This document shows positions 7,763-40,179 of a DNA stretch of 64,000 nt, piece after piece. Below the pieces are notes generated by a model, which was given only the letters and a program-made list of their open reading frames with translations, did not search any database and had not been told where the DNA came from. The DNA comes from a virus. The stretch is from positions 1 to 64,000 of the IMG/VR virus record IMGVR_UViG_3300023314_000001; one strand, 5' to 3'. Position numbers and translations under genes: made by a program. How positions within the stretch are numbered: the stretch's first letter is position 1; every line of letters starts with the position of its first letter.

Positions 7763-8230
7763 CTAATTTGTGCTAATTCTTCTTTTATTCTTTCGTATTT
7801 CATAATATTCTTTTAACTGTTTAATTCTTGTTTCTATATGTTCTGTGATCCAATTATATTCTGGTTTTTCAACTTTTTTGCCGCCGTAATCATAATAATG
7901 GGATAACGGTAAATTAATATTAGCAATATCTTTAGGCCTTAGCTTTAATTTTAAGTCGATTGCTTTTTTAATTTTGTCCTGAAATAATTCTGGAGAAATG
8001 TCTAATATTTTTTCACTTTCTTTTCCAAGTTTTTTAGCGGAAAATCCATGACACTCTCTTAGATGATCATTTAAAGTTGTCTGCCAATACCAATAACCTT
8101 CAATAGAATTAAACCAACCATGTTGGGTTTGTATTGGTGAATAACTAAAATTACTAAGCCATCTTCCTATTTCTGTTTTACCTTTGGAGTAAATGTTTAT
8201 ATGTGTTTCTCCGTCAATACCTTCTATCAT
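7763..8230 (-). CDS. hypothetical protein with NADAR-like motifs (tentative)
   Basis: 155 aa. WLSNFSYSPIQTQHGWFNSIEGYWYW followed by AKKLGKE resembles the NADAR/YbiA core (LSNF..P......F.S.EhYyq ... aKklGr). The gene has its own promoter and an upstream terminator. Confidence 0.35.
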   Translation of the reverse strand: MIEGIDGETHINIYSKGKTEIGRWLSNFSYSPIQTQHGWFNSIEGYWYWQTTLNDHLRECHGFSAKKLGKESEKILDISPELFQDKIKKAIDLKLKLRPKDIANINLPLSHYYDYGGKKVEKPEYNWITEHIETRIKQLKEYYEIRKNKRRISTN

Positions 8231-8234
8231 TTTA

Positions 8235-8264
8235 CAAATTTAGTAATTATTTTTGAATTGACAA
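8235..8264 (-). promoter_or_regulatory. Bacteroidota-type promoter (TTG-N19-TAAATTTG) for 7763..8230
   Basis: The minus strand reads TTG(8264-8262)-19 nt-TAAATTTG(8242-8235)-TAAA-ATG(8230). Only 4 nt separate the -7 box from the start codon. Confidence 0.65.
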
Positions 8265-8290
8265 AATATTTTCTTATTTATTTTTGCTCG

Positions 8291-8319
8291 AAATAAAAAA
8301 TCCCTCAATTAAGAGGGAC
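8291..8319 (-). terminator. rho-independent terminator after 8333..8620
   Basis: TCCCTC-AATTAA-GAGGGA forms the stem-loop. It is followed on the minus strand by TTTTTTATTT. Confidence 0.8.
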
Positions 8320-8332
8320 TGTGGATTTAGTA

Positions 8333-8620
8333 TTAAGAGTTACAAACTGGATGATCAATTTTAGGATTAAATACTAGTTCGCTAGTTCTATTAATATTTA
8401 CAAATTGTTTGAGTAATTCAGTATCTATATTATTAGTTAAAGTATCTATAGTATTTAAAATCCCTTCTGAATAAACTATTTCTTGATCTTTGTATTTATT
8501 TTCTGAATCTATTTTTAAATCTTTTAAAATCTCACCATTTAAATTAAAATGATAATTATTATTTTCTTTAACTCTGATTAGGATTGCTTCTAATCGGTCT
8601 TTAACCTCTTCTAACGTCAT
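8333..8620 (-). CDS. hypothetical protein
   Basis: 95-aa ORF, last gene before the terminator. Confidence 0.6.
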   Translation of the reverse strand: MTLEEVKDRLEAILIRVKENNNYHFNLNGEILKDLKIDSENKYKDQEIVYSEGILNTIDTLTNNIDTELLKQFVNINRTSELVFNPKIDHPVCNS

Positions 8621-8693: not shown

Positions 8694-9161
8694 TCAAAGA
8701 TTTATTAAGTGGTAATCCTTTTCATATAATACTACATCTCTACCTTGTTTAAAACGTTTCAATTGTTTTTCTGTTAATCCTAATTTTTTAAGTTTTTTAA
8801 AATATCTTTTATTTTCTTTTTTATCCTGCGCTAACAATATCTTCTCATCTATACAATCGTCTTTACGGAAATTGTAGGTTTGTCTGTCACCTTTATGTAT
8901 TAATATGTAGTCTAAATCTTTATAAGTTAACGAACCTTTGTAATCTAATAGTAAATCAACTCCCGCAGAACACAAACAATTTGTTAATGTTATTTTTATA
9001 TTATCCTTTAAAGAATTAAAAAACTCAACTAAACATCTCATAGCTGAAGTTAATCCACCATGTGTGGAAAACCAAAGATTTATATCTTCTTGACCTTCTA
9101 ACTTTTCCATTAAATTATTTACAGACTCTACTGTTATCTCTTCATCAAATAAGTAATACAT
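8694..9161 (-). CDS. ClpP-like (S14/crotonase-fold) serine peptidase, short form
   Basis: By eye it aligns to E. coli ClpP. FSTHGG matches INSPGG. NCLCSAG matches GQAASMG (Ser65 candidate). LIHKG matches MIHQP (His89 candidate). GRDVVL matches RDRFL. Confidence 0.6.
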   Translation of the reverse strand: MYYLFDEEITVESVNNLMEKLEGQEDINLWFSTHGGLTSAMRCLVEFFNSLKDNIKITLTNCLCSAGVDLLLDYKGSLTYKDLDYILIHKGDRQTYNFRKDDCIDEKILLAQDKKENKRYFKKLKKLGLTEKQLKRFKQGRDVVLYEKDYHLINL

Positions 9162-10376
9162 TTATATAATTTTATTAATTGCTTCCTCTATTGTATTTGA
9201 TTCTATAAAAAACTCTTGTAATTGTGCCGCAGAGTGAGTTTCATTGTAATTTTCTAATTCTCTCTTTTCGCCGAAAAACAATTCTAACATTCCTTCAACA
9301 TCTTCTTTTTTAGGATTATTAAAAGTTATTTTTTTATCCATTCTACCACATCTTGTCAAAGCACTATCTAATTGATCGGCATGATTACTGGTAAAGAATG
9401 TGCAAATACCTTTCTTAGAATAAGCTCCATCGAGAACATTTAAAACTGTTGAGAAATTTATTTTATCATTTATTTTTTCTCTATCATCCACTACACAATC
9501 TATATCTTCAAGTAGTAAAAAAGTATTTTCTTTTATGGTATTGAAGGCCATTCTTAACTGATCTGAATCTGTAAGAGATGCTATATTTAAAGAGTAAACA
9601 TCTTTACCTAACTTTTGAGCTATTGATAGTATAGTAGTAGTTTTTCCGTTTCCAGGAATTCCATCTGCTAAATACCCTCTTCTGTAAGGGATACCCCTTT
9701 CCAAGTAATACTCTTTAGACTCGAAGAAATTATTTATATCATCTAATAGTTCTATTTTTTCCGAATTAAAAATCTTGTCAAAAGGTTTTACTTCTATAAC
9801 TCCTGTTTTATCCCAGCCATTATAATTTCTATAGTCATATAAGTAACTCTGTGTTTTCTTTTTCTGCTTTGAATTATAGTCATTAACCACTTCATTTAAA
9901 AGACTTTTCAAAGTATTTCTATTGAAATAAGTAGTAAGTGTGTAACTTTCAATATGAGCGTTTTCTAGATAACTTGCATTTTCCATTTTTTCACGAGAAG
10001 ACTCTAAAAACACAGGAGTTCTATTTTGCCAAAAATAAAAAGCAGACTCAAAATTATTTTCTTTTACAGAATAAGTTCTTTCATCATCTCTTGATCCAAT
10101 GCTATCATGATCATCTCGTTTAACAGATAAAATTACTTTTTTATATTTATCAGAATGATTATCTCTAAGCCACTCATTAAAAATATTATATATTTCTGTC
10201 TTAGACTCAATTCGCATAGTATAAGAAAACTGTCTTTTTATTCTCCCCCAAATCCAAGGGAAAAAAGATTTAAGCCAAAAACCTAATGCCGATAAAACAG
10301 CTATAGCAGCGCCACCCTTGAAAAATTCATTATTATGTAATTGTTCTACTACAAACTGTTTTACTTGTTCTATCAT
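9162..10376 (-). CDS. membrane-anchored BCS1-type AAA+ ATPase
   Basis: N-terminal hydrophobic helix GGAAIAVLSALGFWLKSFFPWIW, Walker A GIPGNGKTT, Walker B FLLLEDID, TSN sensor and LTRCGRMD second region of homology. Confidence 0.8.
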   Translation of the reverse strand: MIEQVKQFVVEQLHNNEFFKGGAAIAVLSALGFWLKSFFPWIWGRIKRQFSYTMRIESKTEIYNIFNEWLRDNHSDKYKKVILSVKRDDHDSIGSRDDERTYSVKENNFESAFYFWQNRTPVFLESSREKMENASYLENAHIESYTLTTYFNRNTLKSLLNEVVNDYNSKQKKKTQSYLYDYRNYNGWDKTGVIEVKPFDKIFNSEKIELLDDINNFFESKEYYLERGIPYRRGYLADGIPGNGKTTTILSIAQKLGKDVYSLNIASLTDSDQLRMAFNTIKENTFLLLEDIDCVVDDREKINDKINFSTVLNVLDGAYSKKGICTFFTSNHADQLDSALTRCGRMDKKITFNNPKKEDVEGMLELFFGEKRELENYNETHSAAQLQEFFIESNTIEEAINKII

Positions 10377-10379
10377 ACT

Positions 10380-11111
10380 TTATTTTATTTTTGTTCCCGC
10401 CCAAAATCCCCCAGCTATTGCAACAGGTATTAATATCTTGTCAAATACACTCTTAGTTTTAAGTTTTTTATTTTCTCTTTCAAGGCCTTTATTTAAATCA
10501 GACTGCACACTATTTAATTTGGCAGAGGCTTCCAAACTTTTCTCCGTAGCTTTTAAACTAATATCTTTGTCTCTAAGTTGTTCATCTTTCAAATTAATAA
10601 CACTATCTTTAGAGGCTAATTGTAAATCTTTTTCTTTTATAATATCTTGCGCTGTATTAGCGTCAGCAATAGTTTCAAGAATTTGGTAAGTCATTGGAGG
10701 TCTAACATCAACAGAATTAGGTGTAGCTGAAGCATCTTTAGATCTATAATTGTAATTTAGAGCTTCGGACACTTCAACTAAGTTTTTATTTCTAATTACT
10801 TCTTTCTGTTTTTTATTTGATTCCTGCAAAGCTAGAACTTTTTTCTCACTGTCTTTAGCTTTTTTTTGGAATTCATTAATCAACCGTTCTTTTTTCTCGT
10901 TTTCTTGGCGAAGAGAATCTCTCACTCTAAGTCTGTCTAGCTCAAAAACCTTAACTCCGTCTTGCAATTTTTTAACTTGATCTTTTAGGATTTCATTTTT
11001 CCCTGCCTGGAATTTCTGTTGATTACTTACACAACTTTTTACGCCGAAAAAAATTAGAACCAGCACTATACCTAATGCTGGCCACTTGTACTTATTTATT
11101 ATTTCTTTCAC
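10380..11111 (-). CDS. coiled-coil membrane protein (TM helix at each end)
   Basis: 243 aa with an apparent GTG start. N-terminal WPALGIVLVLIFFGV and C-terminal ILIPVAIAGGFWAG hydrophobic segments flank a long K/E/Q-rich helical region. Confidence 0.65.
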   Translation of the reverse strand: MKEIINKYKWPALGIVLVLIFFGVKSCVSNQQKFQAGKNEILKDQVKKLQDGVKVFELDRLRVRDSLRQENEKKERLINEFQKKAKDSEKKVLALQESNKKQKEVIRNKNLVEVSEALNYNYRSKDASATPNSVDVRPPMTYQILETIADANTAQDIIKEKDLQLASKDSVINLKDEQLRDKDISLKATEKSLEASAKLNSVQSDLNKGLERENKKLKTKSVFDKILIPVAIAGGFWAGTKIK

Positions 11112-11226
11112 TTTTTCCCAGCTTTAACGCAATTAGAATTCTTTTTACTGAATAATCTAGACCCATTAGGAAATCTAGCATTTAAAATTTGTCGTAATGT
11201 AATAATTTCTTTCATTTTTATGTTTT

Positions 11227-11466
11227 TTATAATTCCCACCTTAATATTTGTGATTCTGCTATATATACTTCTCCATCTCTTTCCATTAGCCCGCCGACAA
11301 CTAAAATATCATCAACTTTAACTGGTGTATCTGTAAGACCTTCTCCAATAGCAATCACCTTAACTCTATTTTTGAAAACACCTATTTTATCCATAACTGT
11401 TTCTTTATGCATGACTTTCTCAACTAAAATAAGTTCTCCAAAAACTCTATATTTCTTCTTGTCCAT
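11227..11466 (-). CDS. groES: GroES/Cpn10-like co-chaperonin
   Basis: 79 aa. The pattern GELILVEKV ... VKVIAIGEG ... VKVDDILVV follows the Cpn10 pattern (DRVLVk ... G.VvAvG.G ... vkvGD.Vl). Confidence 0.55.
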   Translation of the reverse strand: MDKKKYRVFGELILVEKVMHKETVMDKIGVFKNRVKVIAIGEGLTDTPVKVDDILVVGGLMERDGEVYIAESQILRWEL

Positions 11467-20044: not shown

Positions 20045-20056
20045 ATTTTTATTTTG

Positions 20057-20130
20057 TGTCCACAACAGGGCTCGAACCTGTGACCTGATGATTATGAGTC
20101 ATCTGCTCTAACCAACTGAGCTATGTGGAC
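20057..20130 (-). tRNA. tRNA-Met (anticodon CAT; could also be a lysidine-modified Ile type)
   Basis: The 74-nt sequence GTCCACATAGCTCAGTTGGTTAGAGCAGATGACTCATAATCATCAGGTCACAGGTTCGAGCCCTGTTGTGGACA folds as a cloverleaf. It has a 7-bp acceptor stem, GCTC/GAGC D stem, GATGA/TCATC anticodon stem with loop CTCATAA, and ACAGG/CCTGT T stem with loop TTCGAGC. No CCA is encoded. G1-C72 pairs, so it is not initiator-like. Confidence 0.9.
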
Positions 20131-25203: not shown

Positions 25204-26856
25204 TTGGAGAATAGAGTAGTTTACGGCCAAGAAGCCAGAAAGTTATTGAAAGAAGGAGTAGATTTAGTTGCAAATGGAGTTAAAGTTACTCTTGGTAAAC
25301 AAGGGTTAAATGTAATGTGCGTAAGAGATTTACTTTTACCTATATTAACAAAAGACGGAGTATCTGTATCTAAAGAAATTGAATCTGAAAATCCTATAAT
25401 TAACGCAGGAGCATCACTAGTAAAACAGGTTTCAAATCAAACAAATGAGGGAGCTGGGGATGGAACCACTTCTAGTGTAGTACTTGCACAGGCTATTGTT
25501 CATGAAGCAGATTTTGTTTTAAACACTGGGAAAGTAAATGCAATATCATTAAAAAGAGGACTAGATTTAGCTTTAGATTTCTCTTTAAAACATTTAAAAA
25601 CTTTATCTAGAAACTCAAGTAATTTAAAAACACTTAAAAGCATAGCAAATGTTTCTACAAATGGAGATGAAGAAATATCTGATTTAGTTGTTGAAGCTTT
25701 CAGAAAAGTAGGCAAAAGTGGAGCAATAAAGGTAGAAGAAACAGATGATATCACTTCCTCTGTAGAATCATCTTTAGGGTATGAATTAGATGTACCATTT
25801 TCTTTGGCGGAATTTATCAATGACCGAGAAAAGTTTGAAGCTGTTTTTGAAGATATGAATGTTTTAATTTACCAAGGACACCTAAAAGATAAAAGACAGT
25901 TAAATAAAGCTATTGAATTATCAACAACTAAGGATGAAAATGGAGAATTAGGAGTATTTGAAGGACTTTTAATTATTTGTGATAACATTTCTGGCCATGT
26001 TCAAAAAGAGATTTTAGAGTTTAGTTATCAAGGATTTAAAATGATGAATTTAAGATCACCTTCTTTCGGAGTAAGAAAAAATGAAACACTTAAGGATATA
26101 GCTGCTTTAATAGGAGCAAAAGTCTACAGTGAGGACTTAGGCGATGATTTAGACAATGTTACCTTAGAAGGGCTAGGACACATTGATAAAGTAATTTCAG
26201 ACGCTAATAAGTCAGTTTTAATCGGCGGAAAAGGAAATCAAGAAGAAATCAAAGAAAGAACAGCAATTGTAAAACAACAAATTAAAAACATCACTGGAGG
26301 TAAAAAAGAAACAGAATATGTAAAAGAAAGATATTCTAAATTAACCAAAGGAGTTGCTGTAATTAAAGTAGGTGGATATTCCGCGCCAGAAAAAAGAGAA
26401 AAGACAGACAGAGTAGAAGACGCTCTATGCGCAGTTAAAGCTTGTTTAGAAGAAGGATATGTAGCTGGTGGAGGTGTAACCTATTTAAACATATCAACTG
26501 CTCTTAAATCGGCTAAAATAGAGACTAGAAATAAAGATGAACAAAAAGGAGTTGAAGTTTTAATAAGATCACTTGAATACCCATTTACTCAAATTTTAGA
26601 AAACGCGGGAATAAAATATAAAAGTAGATTCTTCTGGAAAAATAAATTTATAGAAAGGATAGAAAAACAAGAATACGGTTATGGAATAGATTTAGAAAAT
26701 AATGATTTTACAGATTTATTTGAAAGAGGAATTATTGACCCAACAAAAGTAGAAAGACTAGCTCTTCAAAATGCAGTATCTATTTCAGGAACATTCTTAA
26801 CTTTAGGAGCAATTACTTATAATAACGCATCAATATTTACAGCAAATGGAAAATAA
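25204..26856 (+). CDS. groEL: GroEL/Cpn60-family chaperonin (TTG start)
   Basis: VVYGQEARKLLKEGV aligns to GroEL VKFGNDARVKMLRGV. The ATP motif is GAGDGTTSS, and AVKACLEEGYVAGGGV is also present. Length is 550 aa with no C-terminal GGM tail. Only TTG is available between the upstream in-frame stop (25189) and the conserved N-terminus. Confidence 0.9.
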   Translation: MENRVVYGQEARKLLKEGVDLVANGVKVTLGKQGLNVMCVRDLLLPILTKDGVSVSKEIESENPIINAGASLVKQVSNQTNEGAGDGTTSSVVLAQAIVHEADFVLNTGKVNAISLKRGLDLALDFSLKHLKTLSRNSSNLKTLKSIANVSTNGDEEISDLVVEAFRKVGKSGAIKVEETDDITSSVESSLGYELDVPFSLAEFINDREKFEAVFEDMNVLIYQGHLKDKRQLNKAIELSTTKDENGELGVFEGLLIICDNISGHVQKEILEFSYQGFKMMNLRSPSFGVRKNETLKDIAALIGAKVYSEDLGDDLDNVTLEGLGHIDKVISDANKSVLIGGKGNQEEIKERTAIVKQQIKNITGGKKETEYVKERYSKLTKGVAVIKVGGYSAPEKREKTDRVEDALCAVKACLEEGYVAGGGVTYLNISTALKSAKIETRNKDEQKGVEVLIRSLEYPFTQILENAGIKYKSRFFWKNKFIERIEKQEYGYGIDLENNDFTDLFERGIIDPTKVERLALQNAVSISGTFLTLGAITYNNASIFTANGK

Positions 26857-28726: not shown

Positions 28727-29863
28727 ATGCCAAGGAATAGAAAAACTCGAACAAAAGAACAGTTTATAAAAGAATGTGAAAAATTACACGGACAGTTATA
28801 TGACTACACTTTAACCGATTATAAAAACTGCAAAGAAAAAGTAAAAATAGTTTGTAAAACCCACGGAGTTTTTGAATTAATAGCGGACAATCATCAAAGA
28901 AAAGACGGGTGTCCAACTTGCAGAAAAGAAAAATCAATTGCCGAAAGAAAAGCATCTTTTATTAAAAGAGCTAAAGAAATACATGGAGACACATATGACT
29001 ACTCTTTAGTTAATTATATAAAAAATCAAGATAAAGTTACCCTGATATGTAATGTGCATGGAGAATTTTTACAAAAGCCTCTAAACCATCTGCAAGGAAA
29101 TGGTTGTAATAAATGTAATATTCAAAAAAGATTTGATGATAGATTAACAACCGATGAATTTATTAAAAAGGCTAAACTTATTCACGGAGATACATATTTA
29201 TATAATAAAACAAAATATGTAAGGTTTGATGATCCTGTTACGATTGAATGTAAACACCACGGTATTTTTGAACAAAAACCTACTAATCATATAAAAGGAG
29301 CGGGTTGTATTAAGTGCGGTATAAATAAAATTTCAAATAAATTTATAAGCAATACGAAAGACTTTATAAGTAAGGCTATAAAAATTCATGGTAATAGGTA
29401 CGACTATAAAGACATAGAATATACTCACAGCAGACAAAAAGTTAAAATTAAATGCAGTACACATGGAACTTTTGAGCAAACTCCTTCAACTCATTTAAAA
29501 GGTTCTGGATGTCAAAAATGCGCTTCTTTGATTAATGTATATAAGAGAGAAGATTATATAAAGCTATCAAAAAATGCCATTTTATATTTAGTATTATTAG
29601 AATTTGGGGATGAAAAATTTTATAAAATAGGGAAAACAAAAAATACAACAAACGAAAGATTATCTAACAACACTTCTATATATAAACATATAGTAGTGAA
29701 TGAGTATTTGGATACTTCAGGAACTATTTTTGACTTGGAAATAGAGTTGCATAACAAATATTTGGAATATAAGTATAAACCAAAAGTTATTTTTGCAGGA
29801 CATACAGAATGTTATAATTTAGATTTACCAATAGAAGAAATTATAAAATTAAATACTAAATAA
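28727..29863 (+). CDS. free-standing homing-endonuclease-like protein: four Zn-ribbon repeats plus a T5orf172 (GIY-YIG superfamily) domain
   Basis: Four tandem copies of about 55 aa fit F-I-x-[KR]-A-x-x-[IL]-H-G-x-x-Y-D-Y ... C-x-x-H-G-x-F ... H-[LI]-x-G-x-G-C-x-x-C. These are followed by ILYLVLLEFGDEKFYKIGKTKNTTNERL, which fits the T5orf172 signature. Confidence 0.65.
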   Translation: MPRNRKTRTKEQFIKECEKLHGQLYDYTLTDYKNCKEKVKIVCKTHGVFELIADNHQRKDGCPTCRKEKSIAERKASFIKRAKEIHGDTYDYSLVNYIKNQDKVTLICNVHGEFLQKPLNHLQGNGCNKCNIQKRFDDRLTTDEFIKKAKLIHGDTYLYNKTKYVRFDDPVTIECKHHGIFEQKPTNHIKGAGCIKCGINKISNKFISNTKDFISKAIKIHGNRYDYKDIEYTHSRQKVKIKCSTHGTFEQTPSTHLKGSGCQKCASLINVYKREDYIKLSKNAILYLVLLEFGDEKFYKIGKTKNTTNERLSNNTSIYKHIVVNEYLDTSGTIFDLEIELHNKYLEYKYKPKVIFAGHTECYNLDLPIEEIIKLNTK

Positions 29864-38844: not shown

Positions 38845-40179
38845 ATGAAATATACAACAGAAACATACATAGTAAAAGCAAACGAAGTACATAATAATAA
38901 ATACGATTACAGTAAGACTATTTTTAAATCTAAGGGACATATAATTATAACTTGCCCTTTACATGAAATAGACTTTCCAAAAAGAGTAGACCAACACCTT
39001 GAAGGTAAGGGGTGTCCTAAATGTATCTCAGAAGAAAAGTCCAAGAGAATGTCTATGTCGAAAGAAGAGTGCATAGAAAAGGCTATTTTAAAACATGGAG
39101 ATTTATATGAATACTCATCAATTGTGAATTTTACTCAGCAAAGAAACACTTATAAAATTATATGTAAAAAACATAACAAAGAGTTTCCTCTTAGATTTGA
39201 TAAACATATAGAAGGAAGAGGGTGTCCAGATTGTAGCCAAGAAAGAAGACAAAATATATTAAGAACACCATTGCCCGAGGTAATTGAAAAAATTAGAGAA
39301 GTACATGGAGACAAATACGGATTAGAAAATTTAAATTTTAAAGGCAGTAATTTTGAAATGTACCCTACTTGCAAAATACATGGGGATTTTAATGTTTGGC
39401 CTCAGCAATTTTTTAATGGCTCAAACTGCCCTAAATGTGGAGTAACTGTATCAAAAGCTGAGCAGGAAATAAATGACTTCTTAGAACAATTTATATCAAC
39501 CGAAACATCTAACAGAAGAATATTAAAAAATAGATTTGAATTGGACATTTATATCCCAACTTTAAAAGCAGCAGTAGAATTTAACGGTCTTTATTTTCAT
39601 TCTGATGAATTTCACAAAATGGATTCACACTTAAATAAGACAATGGAATGTCAAGGCAAAGGAATTAAATTGATTCATATATTTGAAGATGAGTGGAAAG
39701 ATAAAAAAGAAATTGTAAAATCACTGTTACTTGAATCTATAGACAAGACAGAAAATAAATTATCAGTTGAGGATTGTGAAATTAAAATAGCTGATCAAAA
39801 AGAATACAGAGAATTTCTGGAAATTAACTATATTGACGATTTTATAGAAGCAGACTTAATTGTGGGACTTTATTATAAAAACGAATTAGTTTCTCTAATC
39901 TCAGAAAAGAATAAAGAATTACTTCTTGTAAACAAACTAAACACTATTGTTGATAAAGGATTTGAGAAACTTTTAGAAAATTTTAAAGGAGAATACAAAA
40001 CTACAGTTGATTTAAGACGGAGTTATGGTGAACGTGAAAAAGCTTTAGGATTTAAATTAATTGAACAAACACCTCCTGCTTACTTTTTTACTAAGGGTCA
40101 AATGAGAACTAAAAAAGAAATTAAGGGTTATAATAAGATATATGATTGTGGCACTCTAAAATTAAGTAATTTGCTGTAA
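38845..40179 (+). CDS. free-standing homing-endonuclease-like protein: three Zn-ribbon repeats plus a PD-(D/E)xK (Vsr/DUF559-like) domain
   Basis: It has three copies of the same repeat type as 28727..29863. These are followed by RFELDIYIPTLKAAVEFNGLYFHS, typical of Vsr/DUF559-type restriction-fold nucleases. Confidence 0.6.
   Translation: MKYTTETYIVKANEVHNNKYDYSKTIFKSKGHIIITCPLHEIDFPKRVDQHLEGKGCPKCISEEKSKRMSMSKEECIEKAILKHGDLYEYSSIVNFTQQRNTYKIICKKHNKEFPLRFDKHIEGRGCPDCSQERRQNILRTPLPEVIEKIREVHGDKYGLENLNFKGSNFEMYPTCKIHGDFNVWPQQFFNGSNCPKCGVTVSKAEQEINDFLEQFISTETSNRRILKNRFELDIYIPTLKAAVEFNGLYFHSDEFHKMDSHLNKTMECQGKGIKLIHIFEDEWKDKKEIVKSLLLESIDKTENKLSVEDCEIKIADQKEYREFLEINYIDDFIEADLIVGLYYKNELVSLISEKNKELLLVNKLNTIVDKGFEKLLENFKGEYKTTVDLRRSYGEREKALGFKLIEQTPPAYFFTKGQMRTKKEIKGYNKIYDCGTLKLSNLL

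Follow-up and report, generated by a model that had tools for sequence, protein, structure and literature searches.

A Bcs1-type ATPase and a short ClpP-like protein as probably separate accessory genes in a relative of Cellulophaga phage phi4:1

ClpP (S14, PF00574), the serine peptidase at the core of ClpXP and ClpAP, forms rings of seven-fold symmetry, and its N-terminal loops serve both in gating and in the work with the ATPase partner. In FtsH an AAA domain is fused to an M41 peptidase with an HExxH motif, and in IetAS an ATPase (IetA) is encoded together with a subtilisin-like protease (IetS). Bcs1 is a heptameric translocase of folded proteins; Iyer et al. 2021 described BCS1 orthologs in jumbo phages, speculating that they assemble or translocate folded proteins near the membrane, and noted separately a patchy, non-virion ClpP in such phages (PMC7824862). 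Here we analyse four genes at positions 8,694 to 11,466 of a viral sequence of 64,000 nucleotides (nt), the whole of which is called the window (positions 1 to 64,000 of IMG/VR virus record IMGVR_UViG_3300023314_000001). The phage, of about 143 kb, is kin to Cellulophaga phage phi4:1 and uncultured marine relatives, and the gene string lies in its accessory, non-structural arm. An initial annotation had read the four genes as an operon for a GroES-like protein, a coiled-coil membrane protein and a membrane-tethered AAA+ unfoldase coupled to a ClpP-fold peptidase. Our comparison with related loci suggests that they are a row of independently exchangeable single-gene accessory cassettes, ancestrally just downstream of the phage GroEL gene, in which the ATPase would be a Bcs1-type remodeller or translocase and the short ClpP an ungated, autonomous peptidase; we regard this as the probable explanation, with room for others.

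The list of open reading frames (ORFs) has all four genes where the initial annotation had placed them, on the minus strand, and the GroEL gene at 25204 was likewise confirmed. Lengths are given in amino acids (aa), and the 243-aa protein is called cc below.

11227..11466, minus strand: 79-aa small beta-rich protein (cluster c13), 'GroES-like' unproven, from the ORF list
10380..11111, minus strand: 243-aa membrane protein (cc) with a GTG start and a helical middle rich in K, E and L, from the ORF list
9162..10376, minus strand: 404-aa predicted Bcs1-family AAA ATPase with an N-terminal transmembrane anchor, from Pfam and a PDB match to yeast Bcs1
8694..9161, minus strand: 155-aa predicted ClpP-family serine peptidase, divergent and N-terminally truncated (phrog_32912), from profiles and fold search
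25204..26856, plus strand: phage GroEL (PF00118 1.5e-56; NCBIfam GroEL 4.8e-130)

Gene exchange in related loci

The initial annotation had staked its proposal on conserved synteny of the four-gene set. In 19 non-redundant related loci (numbered with the prefix L), oriented on the ClpP-like or the cc gene, the AAA and the ClpP-like gene come and go independently along a common backbone, c4-c2-c1-[GroEL]-small ORFs-[cc]-[variable]-[slot]-c6/Acb3. The AAA is present in 7 of the 12 cc-bearing loci (truncated in L011) and missing from the other 5, while the slot of these 12 loci is occupied by the ClpP-like gene in 8 and by an unrelated HExxH protein in 4. Where the AAA is missing, a YunG-like gene (L009), an 86-aa ORF (L030) or nothing at all (L027) lies between cc and the slot. 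L020 encodes an AAA 98% identical to that of the window, yet has no ClpP-like gene at the slot, and L022 also carries the AAA with the ClpP-like gene absent at this site. Conversely, at least 10 loci (L009, L027, L030, L012-L019) have the ClpP-like gene and no AAA; L012-L019 lack cc as well, and among them is phi4:1, an isolated phage, with the gene placed between helicase and RecA genes. In L011:4007-4997 (= L023) the AAA is broken, a 303-aa ORF being followed by a frame change with residues about 302-367 (the sensor and Arg-finger region) missing, and the adjoining ClpP-like gene is intact; the break could reflect either pseudogenisation or a fault in the assembly. Further afield, no short-ClpP gene lies within 4 kb of the Bcs1-like AAA in PTm1, pT24, CcrColossus, NiceHouse or EliS-L02, and synteny with Tenacibaculum jumbo phages was considered and rejected, the AAA alone being in common.

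Protein identities of adjoining genes are also at odds with each other:

window and L010: AAA 97%, ClpP-like 60%, cc 76%
window and L004: AAA 68%, ClpP-like 79%, cc 47%
L020 and L022: AAA 72%, ClpP-like not present, cc 97%

These incongruent identities suggest that every gene is its own recombination cassette. Taken together, independent occurrence, cassette swaps and shuffled alleles point to separate accessory genes and not to one machine.

GroEL stands adjacent upstream of the cc/ClpP-like neighbourhood in L003, L004, L012-14 and L027-30, and in several of these relatives it lies between the 54-aa c1 gene and cc (L003:4350-5837, L004:3787-5352, L027-L030). In the sub-clade of the window, GroEL appears to have moved about 14 kb away, to the other strand, with the 79-aa gene now in its former place. 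Genes of anti-CBASS/anti-Thoeris type are found in the same surroundings, namely Acb3 at L003:8474-9235, L009:5468-6229 and L027:5219-5974 and an Acb2_Tad1_hairpin gene at L004:3287-3604, which in these relatives adjoin the ClpP-like gene or lie near GroEL. Their presence suggests that the neighbourhood is an accessory, counter-defence region, and the string in the window most likely belongs to a hypervariable, putatively early region with independent accessory genes.

The predicted ATPase and the short ClpP-like protein

Judged from its sequence, the 404-aa protein genuinely belongs to the Bcs1 family of AAA proteins. It matches PF00004 (3.4e-18, 66.8 bits, above the gathering score), PF08740 BCS1_N over residues 30-192 (1.5e-12, 48.3 bits against a cutoff of 28.1) and phrog_7485 (7e-65), and its best phmmer match in the PDB is yeast Bcs1 (6sh3, 5.8e-39), followed by mouse Bcs1 (1.3e-23). 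The alignment with yeast Bcs1 spans residues 3-392, and hence the transmembrane region, the Bcs1-specific domain and the AAA domain, with the motifs GIPGNGKT (Walker A), LLLEDID (Walker B) and RCGRMD (second region of homology) aligned to GPPGSGKT, LLLEDID and RPGRID. The transmembrane segment (residues ~17-42), which aligns with that of Bcs1 and is followed by the basic stretch GRIKRQF, is kept in L003 and L004; this hydrophobic segment and the basic residues after it would place the ATPase in the cytoplasm. With BCS1_N and AAA domains above their cutoffs and yeast Bcs1 as best match, the membrane helix and BCS1-style motifs described in the initial annotation are well founded.

Homologs of this AAA occur in 213 GenBank phage records. 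The transmembrane anchor, Bcs1-specific domain and AAA domain are shared with mitochondrial Bcs1 and with the phage BCS1 orthologs (PMC7824862), but the bacterial host of the window phage has no Rieske/bc1 assembly context, the phage, at ~143 kb, is smaller than the jumbo phages, and its AAA is a single-gene cassette between the cc gene and the variable slot. Against the NCBIfam FtsH model the protein scores 37.5 bits for a cutoff of 600, and PADLOC models return generic AAA similarity to TRIP13 and IetA, the latter match (1.9e-9) covering the AAA domain only and being far weaker than that to Bcs1. The resemblance to FtsH and ClpXP is superficial: a membrane-anchored classical-clade AAA is encoded beside a peptidase gene, and sister phages have an HExxH-motif protein in the place of the peptidase, but ATPase and peptidase are here encoded by two genes, which are not inherited together, the AAA is of Bcs1 type, and docking loops were not found. 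Indeed, the AAA sequence has no ClpP-docking element (IGF/LGF loop) beyond a single LGF tripeptide at residues 30-32, inside the transmembrane helix. The two-gene layout of ATPase and serine protease recalls IetAS; however, the window peptidase is of ClpP fold and not a subtilase, and the genes belong to a phage and not to a host defence island. To our knowledge, Bcs1-family AAAs are folded-protein translocases and not ClpP-docking unfoldases. The literature yielded, on the function of phage Bcs1 or of non-structural phage ClpP, only the comparative note in PMC7824862.

The 155-aa protein taken alone has no Pfam match at E<=1 and no NCBIfam match, and its matches in the PDB are weak (E ~0.3), all of them to ClpP. 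A profile of 5 sequences matches ClpP only (E=0.004), and an exhaustive profile search delineated a family of 531 representative clusters at 50% identity (phrog_32912), with a median length of 166 aa compared with about 195-210 for ClpP. A profile of 133 family sequences gives 102 PDB matches, the best at 2.6e-11 and all ClpP among the 60 matches listed, while 39 of the 133 members individually match PF00574 at E<=0.01. Using hhalign, E. coli ClpP was matched with 93% probability, equating G35G36 with G67G68, S65 with S97 and H89 with H122. G35, G36, S65 and H89 are invariant in 133/133 sequences and D142 is kept in 119/133 (89%); the equivalence of D142 and D171 comes from sequence inspection and a HMMER alignment, in which 'G-x-D-V' stands against 'E-R-D-R' of ClpP. 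When an AlphaFold2 model of the protein (predicted local distance difference test, pLDDT, 75.5) was compared with the PDB by Foldseek, the top 50 matches were all ClpP (probability 1.00, TMq 0.55-0.67), at about 17-20% identity, and a fold search of BFVD returned phi4:1 gp084 and then viral ClpPs, including head-maturation proteases.

We thus take the 155-aa protein to be, as predicted from profiles and model, a genuine but very divergent ClpP-fold protein of the S14 superfamily that falls below the Pfam threshold. It shares with ClpP the alpha/beta fold and, at equivalent positions, the predicted Ser-His-Asp and oxyanion Gly-Gly, whose conservation makes it look catalytically competent; indeed, the invariance of Ser, His and Gly-Gly in 133/133 sequences argues that catalysis itself is selected. 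On this protein the initial annotation had been right, since the profiles, hhalign and Foldseek all support a ClpP-like identity with Ser65, His89 and Asp142 as proposed, and the analysis returned a conserved triad and ClpP in all of the top 50 folds where the annotation had allowed for a lost triad or a non-catalytic crotonase fold.

Besides its low identity and its phage origin, the protein differs from ClpP at its ends. In the HMMER and hhalign alignments its start falls near residue 30 of the mature ClpP of E. coli, so that the axial N-terminal loops and helix alpha-A would be absent; its C-terminus is ~9 residues shorter than that of ClpP, and the segment from His89 to Asp142 (the handle) has 52 residues compared with 48. 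ClpP variants with N-terminal deletions have an ungated pore and cooperate poorly with Clp ATPases, and the missing loops predict the same two properties here. Loss of the axial loops and alpha-A would thus suggest an ungated, ATPase-independent action of the short ClpP. No ClpX/ClpA-type partner is encoded near the 155-aa gene.

Relatives of the short ClpP were also sought beyond the locus sample, outside which the genomic contexts of the deep branches of the family lie. A pattern scan of 185,579 bacterial and archaeal species genomes found none, scans of IMG/VR with single proteins, that of the window and three remote members of the family, gave no matches, and a metagenome scan produced 7 further loci only, mostly duplicates. 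The sole non-Cellulophaga GenBank phage match of the 155-aa protein, at 26% identity, is an annotated full-length ClpP of 226 aa in Acinetobacter phage MD-2021a (L008:5908-6588), whose non-structural surroundings include a PhoH/PsiH gene a few genes before it. In L017 and L019, too, the gene immediately after the short ClpP is PhoH-like.

Competing explanations for the gene string

If the four genes are separate accessory cassettes, as we propose, the Bcs1-like AAA would be held in the inner membrane by a single helix at its N-terminus, its ATPase on the cytoplasmic side, and by analogy with Bcs1 it would most likely remodel or translocate a folded protein at the membrane. The short ClpP would most likely be an ungated, ATPase-independent, self-compartmentalised peptidase, as its homology suggests, whose substrates in the infected cell may be peptides or unfolded proteins of host or phage. 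That it serves as the proteolytic chamber of the neighbouring AAA is unlikely.

Several observations weigh against such a separation. AAA and ClpP-like gene have retained their adjacency in the window, L010, L003 and L004, and this despite divergence to 56-68% protein identity between the window, L003 and L004. The 0-nt junction of the two genes suggests translational coupling and, together with the kept adjacency, leaves room for a facultative functional interaction. Also, in every cc-bearing locus the slot holds either a ClpP-like or a conserved-HExxH protein, so a peptidase function could be selected there. Finally, the AlphaFold2 model of the ClpP-like protein is of moderate confidence only (pLDDT 75.5), and the pattern scan by which the other loci were collected, which was not a full-contig search, found no ClpP-like gene elsewhere on the 141-143-kb contigs of L020 and L022.

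The junction and the conserved adjacency are what would be expected of a facultative machine, in which a Bcs1-like ring feeds, or is capped by, a short ClpP-like ring to give an FtsH-like membrane protease. Bcs1 heptamers (7 chains each in PDB entries 6sh3 and 6uko; PMC7824862) would be symmetry-matched to the seven-fold ClpP ring, and pairs of an ATPase and a serine protease are known, such as IetAS, to whose ATPase the AAA is weakly similar (1.9e-9). However, the two genes are present and absent independently, each is replaced as a cassette, the AAA has decayed beside an intact ClpP-like gene, and the alleles are incongruent. The ClpP-like protein, moreover, is without N-terminal loops and alpha-A, the only LGF of the AAA is inside its transmembrane helix, and Bcs1 is known to translocate folded proteins and not as an unfoldase (PMC7824862). 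The coupling of a membrane-tethered unfoldase to a ClpP-fold peptidase, with which the initial annotation had explained the locus, founders on the same observations, and we consider a facultative machine unlikely. A bolder version, in which a heptameric Bcs1-like ring and a seven-fold gate-less ClpP ring form, whenever both genes are present, a membrane-anchored protease that pulls out and destroys folded host envelope or defence proteins, with the HExxH protein of sister phages as an interchangeable proteolytic module, seems to us quite improbable.

Another arrangement would make cc the constant element, a membrane scaffold combined with a swappable putative peptidase encoded downstream (ClpP-like or the 111-aa HExxH protein), the AAA being optional. 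The cc protein is a membrane protein specific to the clade, with hydrophobic helices at both ends as initially described (segments 8-31 and 222-242, both conserved in homologs), and it is found more widely than the AAA. Its hydrophobic residues show a 3.5-residue periodicity stronger than that of shuffles (p=0.0165) and its N-terminus is kept across 6 homologs; the family is confined to this phage clade, with 25 clusters at >=42% identity, and has no Pfam or PHROG match. A lipoprotein or unimolecular spanin was considered for cc and rejected, the lipobox -2 position being K or R and the Cys being replaced by Arg in L010.

The putative alternative peptidase, a 111-aa protein (phrog_1365), fills the slot at L028:4732-5055 and L029:4732-5064, and does so together with a 174-aa protein at L020:5218-6071 and L022:5209-6062. 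Its motifs IAHE[IV][IV]H and DE..AY..GW are invariant in 5 homologs, and it could be a minimal zincin, although it has no Pfam or PDB relative and no detectable relation to any peptidase family. The 174-aa protein (phrog_4301), which precedes the HExxH gene in L020 and L022, has a kinase-like GSGVYRSVY...VIKIE motif and no Pfam or PDB relative. A scaffold with a swappable peptidase would account for a downstream slot that is ClpP-like (8) or HExxH (4) in 12/12 cc-bearing loci, and for the invariant motifs of the HExxH protein. Yet that protein has no detectable peptidase kinship, L027 carries both the ClpP-like and the HExxH gene (8198-8521), the ClpP-like gene is commonly found without cc (L012-L019), and the sample is small and phylogenetically clustered; we rate this arrangement, too, as unlikely.

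The short ClpP might act on the host protease itself, by co-assembling or competing as a short subunit and so reprogramming or disabling host ClpXP/ClpAP. The ClpP fold with a His89-Asp142 region of handle length, together with the missing N-terminal gate, would suit such a role, and host proteolysis has been suggested as the target of the patchily distributed ClpP and ClpS of phages (PMC7824862). The invariant Ser, His and Gly-Gly argue for selected catalysis, however, and at ~17-20% identity to cellular ClpPs mixed rings become less likely, so we hold interference with host ClpP to be improbable.

A displaced capsid-maturation (prohead) protease, the second suggestion of the initial annotation, is very improbable: many phage ClpP-fold proteins are head-maturation proteases, some of which are among the BFVD matches, and the window has no second ClpP-family ORF, but the gene is, as had been remarked at the outset, outside the structural module (opposite strand, >20 kb from structural genes), the phi4:1 copy stands among helicase and RecA genes, there is no fused scaffold or capsid domain, and in the near-identical phages L020 and L022 the gene is replaced by others and hence dispensable, which makes a role in capsid maturation unlikely.

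Neighbouring genes and the biology of the region

For the 79-aa protein the 'GroES-like' call is unproven. Compared with GroES/Cpn10, T4 gp31 and phi4:1 gp096 it is likewise small and predicted to be beta-rich, and a local GEG...VKVDD resembles GNG...VKVGD of GroES; unlike GroES, it is ~18 residues shorter, at the would-be mobile loop, and has no significant match. Its homologs form 15 clusters at >=71% identity, and a 91%-identical protein carries the label 'co-chaperonin' in one nr source. There is no Pfam, NCBIfam or PDB sequence match, BLASTP against E. coli GroES, phi4:1 GroES and T4 gp31 was not significant, and hhalign against a GroES set gave 10% probability. The AlphaFold2 model is all-beta and of low confidence (pLDDT 55.6), and with this low-confidence model the top 3 Foldseek matches are Cpn10, all non-significant (E=0.046-0.4, TMq about 0.4). 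The Cpn10 identity given in the initial annotation was thus not confirmed. GroEL lies ~14 kb from the 79-aa gene on the other strand, and the c13 cluster is not found at GroEL-adjacent loci, adjoining GroEL in none of the loci examined. Among the weak Foldseek matches of the same low-confidence model (E>1) are 7ekq_R and 7ekq_P of the Chlamydomonas chloroplast ClpP complex, a structure that presumably holds co-chaperonin-like subunits on a ClpP core; we mention this as a curiosity only.

Three further features lie in or next to the gene string:

11108..11239, minus strand: possible small ORF of 35-43 aa (35 aa from an internal ATG; MKEIITLRQ...), kept as an ORF in relatives
8333..8620, minus strand: 95-aa ORF (cluster c6), kept downstream of the slot in relatives and probably the final gene of the transcription unit
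8299..8320, minus strand: terminator-like hairpin and T-run directly 3' of the 95-aa ORF, with 8 pairs (4 GC) and the tail TTTTATTT

The tight junctions of the last three genes, already noted in the initial annotation, were measured as 3 nt from cc to the AAA and 0 nt from the AAA to the ClpP-like gene. Between the 79-aa gene and cc lie 115 nt, with the small ORF inside this gap. The stop of the small ORF shares bases with the GTG at which the 243-aa gene starts (GTGA), and the ORF is present in L010, L011, L020 and L022 at 69-88% amino-acid identity, making it a possible candidate gene only. Its opening residues are similar to the N-terminus of the 243-aa protein. The 95-aa ORF, for which Pfam and PHROG searches gave no family match, is found downstream of the slot in L004, L010, L011, L020 and L009. 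The terminator-like hairpin directly after it suggests a unit of probably five or six genes; in the region, 4 terminator-like sites were found compared with 1.0 expected from shuffles. A sigma-70 promoter scan did not exceed the expectation from shuffles, this promoter type being probably the wrong one for the likely Bacteroidota host, and megablast of the region against GenBank phages gave 0 matches.

The left arm of the window is all minus-strand coding up to a strand switch at ~24 kb, and a plus-strand module with the virion structural proteins begins near 30 kb. A single tRNA gene, tRNA-Met (CAT), is located at 20056-20130 on the minus strand, in the minus-strand arm; in phi4:1 a large array of tRNA genes lies near the ClpP-like gene. 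Two HNH/homing-endonuclease-like genes are scattered in the structural module, at 28727-29863 and 38845-40179 on the plus strand (phrog_681, phrog_559, phrog_3339; DUF4379/DUF723 zinc-finger motifs).

Both folds of the central gene pair were already known, each having been noted in phages before. What is new is the delineation of a large unannotated family of short, gate-less ClpPs with a predicted intact active site (phrog_32912, labelled 'unknown function'), its location downstream of the phage GroEL, and its alternation with an HExxH protein in one slot. Bcs1-type AAAs, until now noted in jumbo phages, are also found as single-gene cassettes in phages of roughly 140 kb, and the locus cautions that tight junctions in phage accessory regions are not evidence of a molecular machine. 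The short-ClpP family would represent a natural experiment, a ClpP core without its gating and ATPase-docking elements, and in marine Flavobacteriia phages, which are abundant, the short ClpP is a candidate protease for host takeover or counter-defence.

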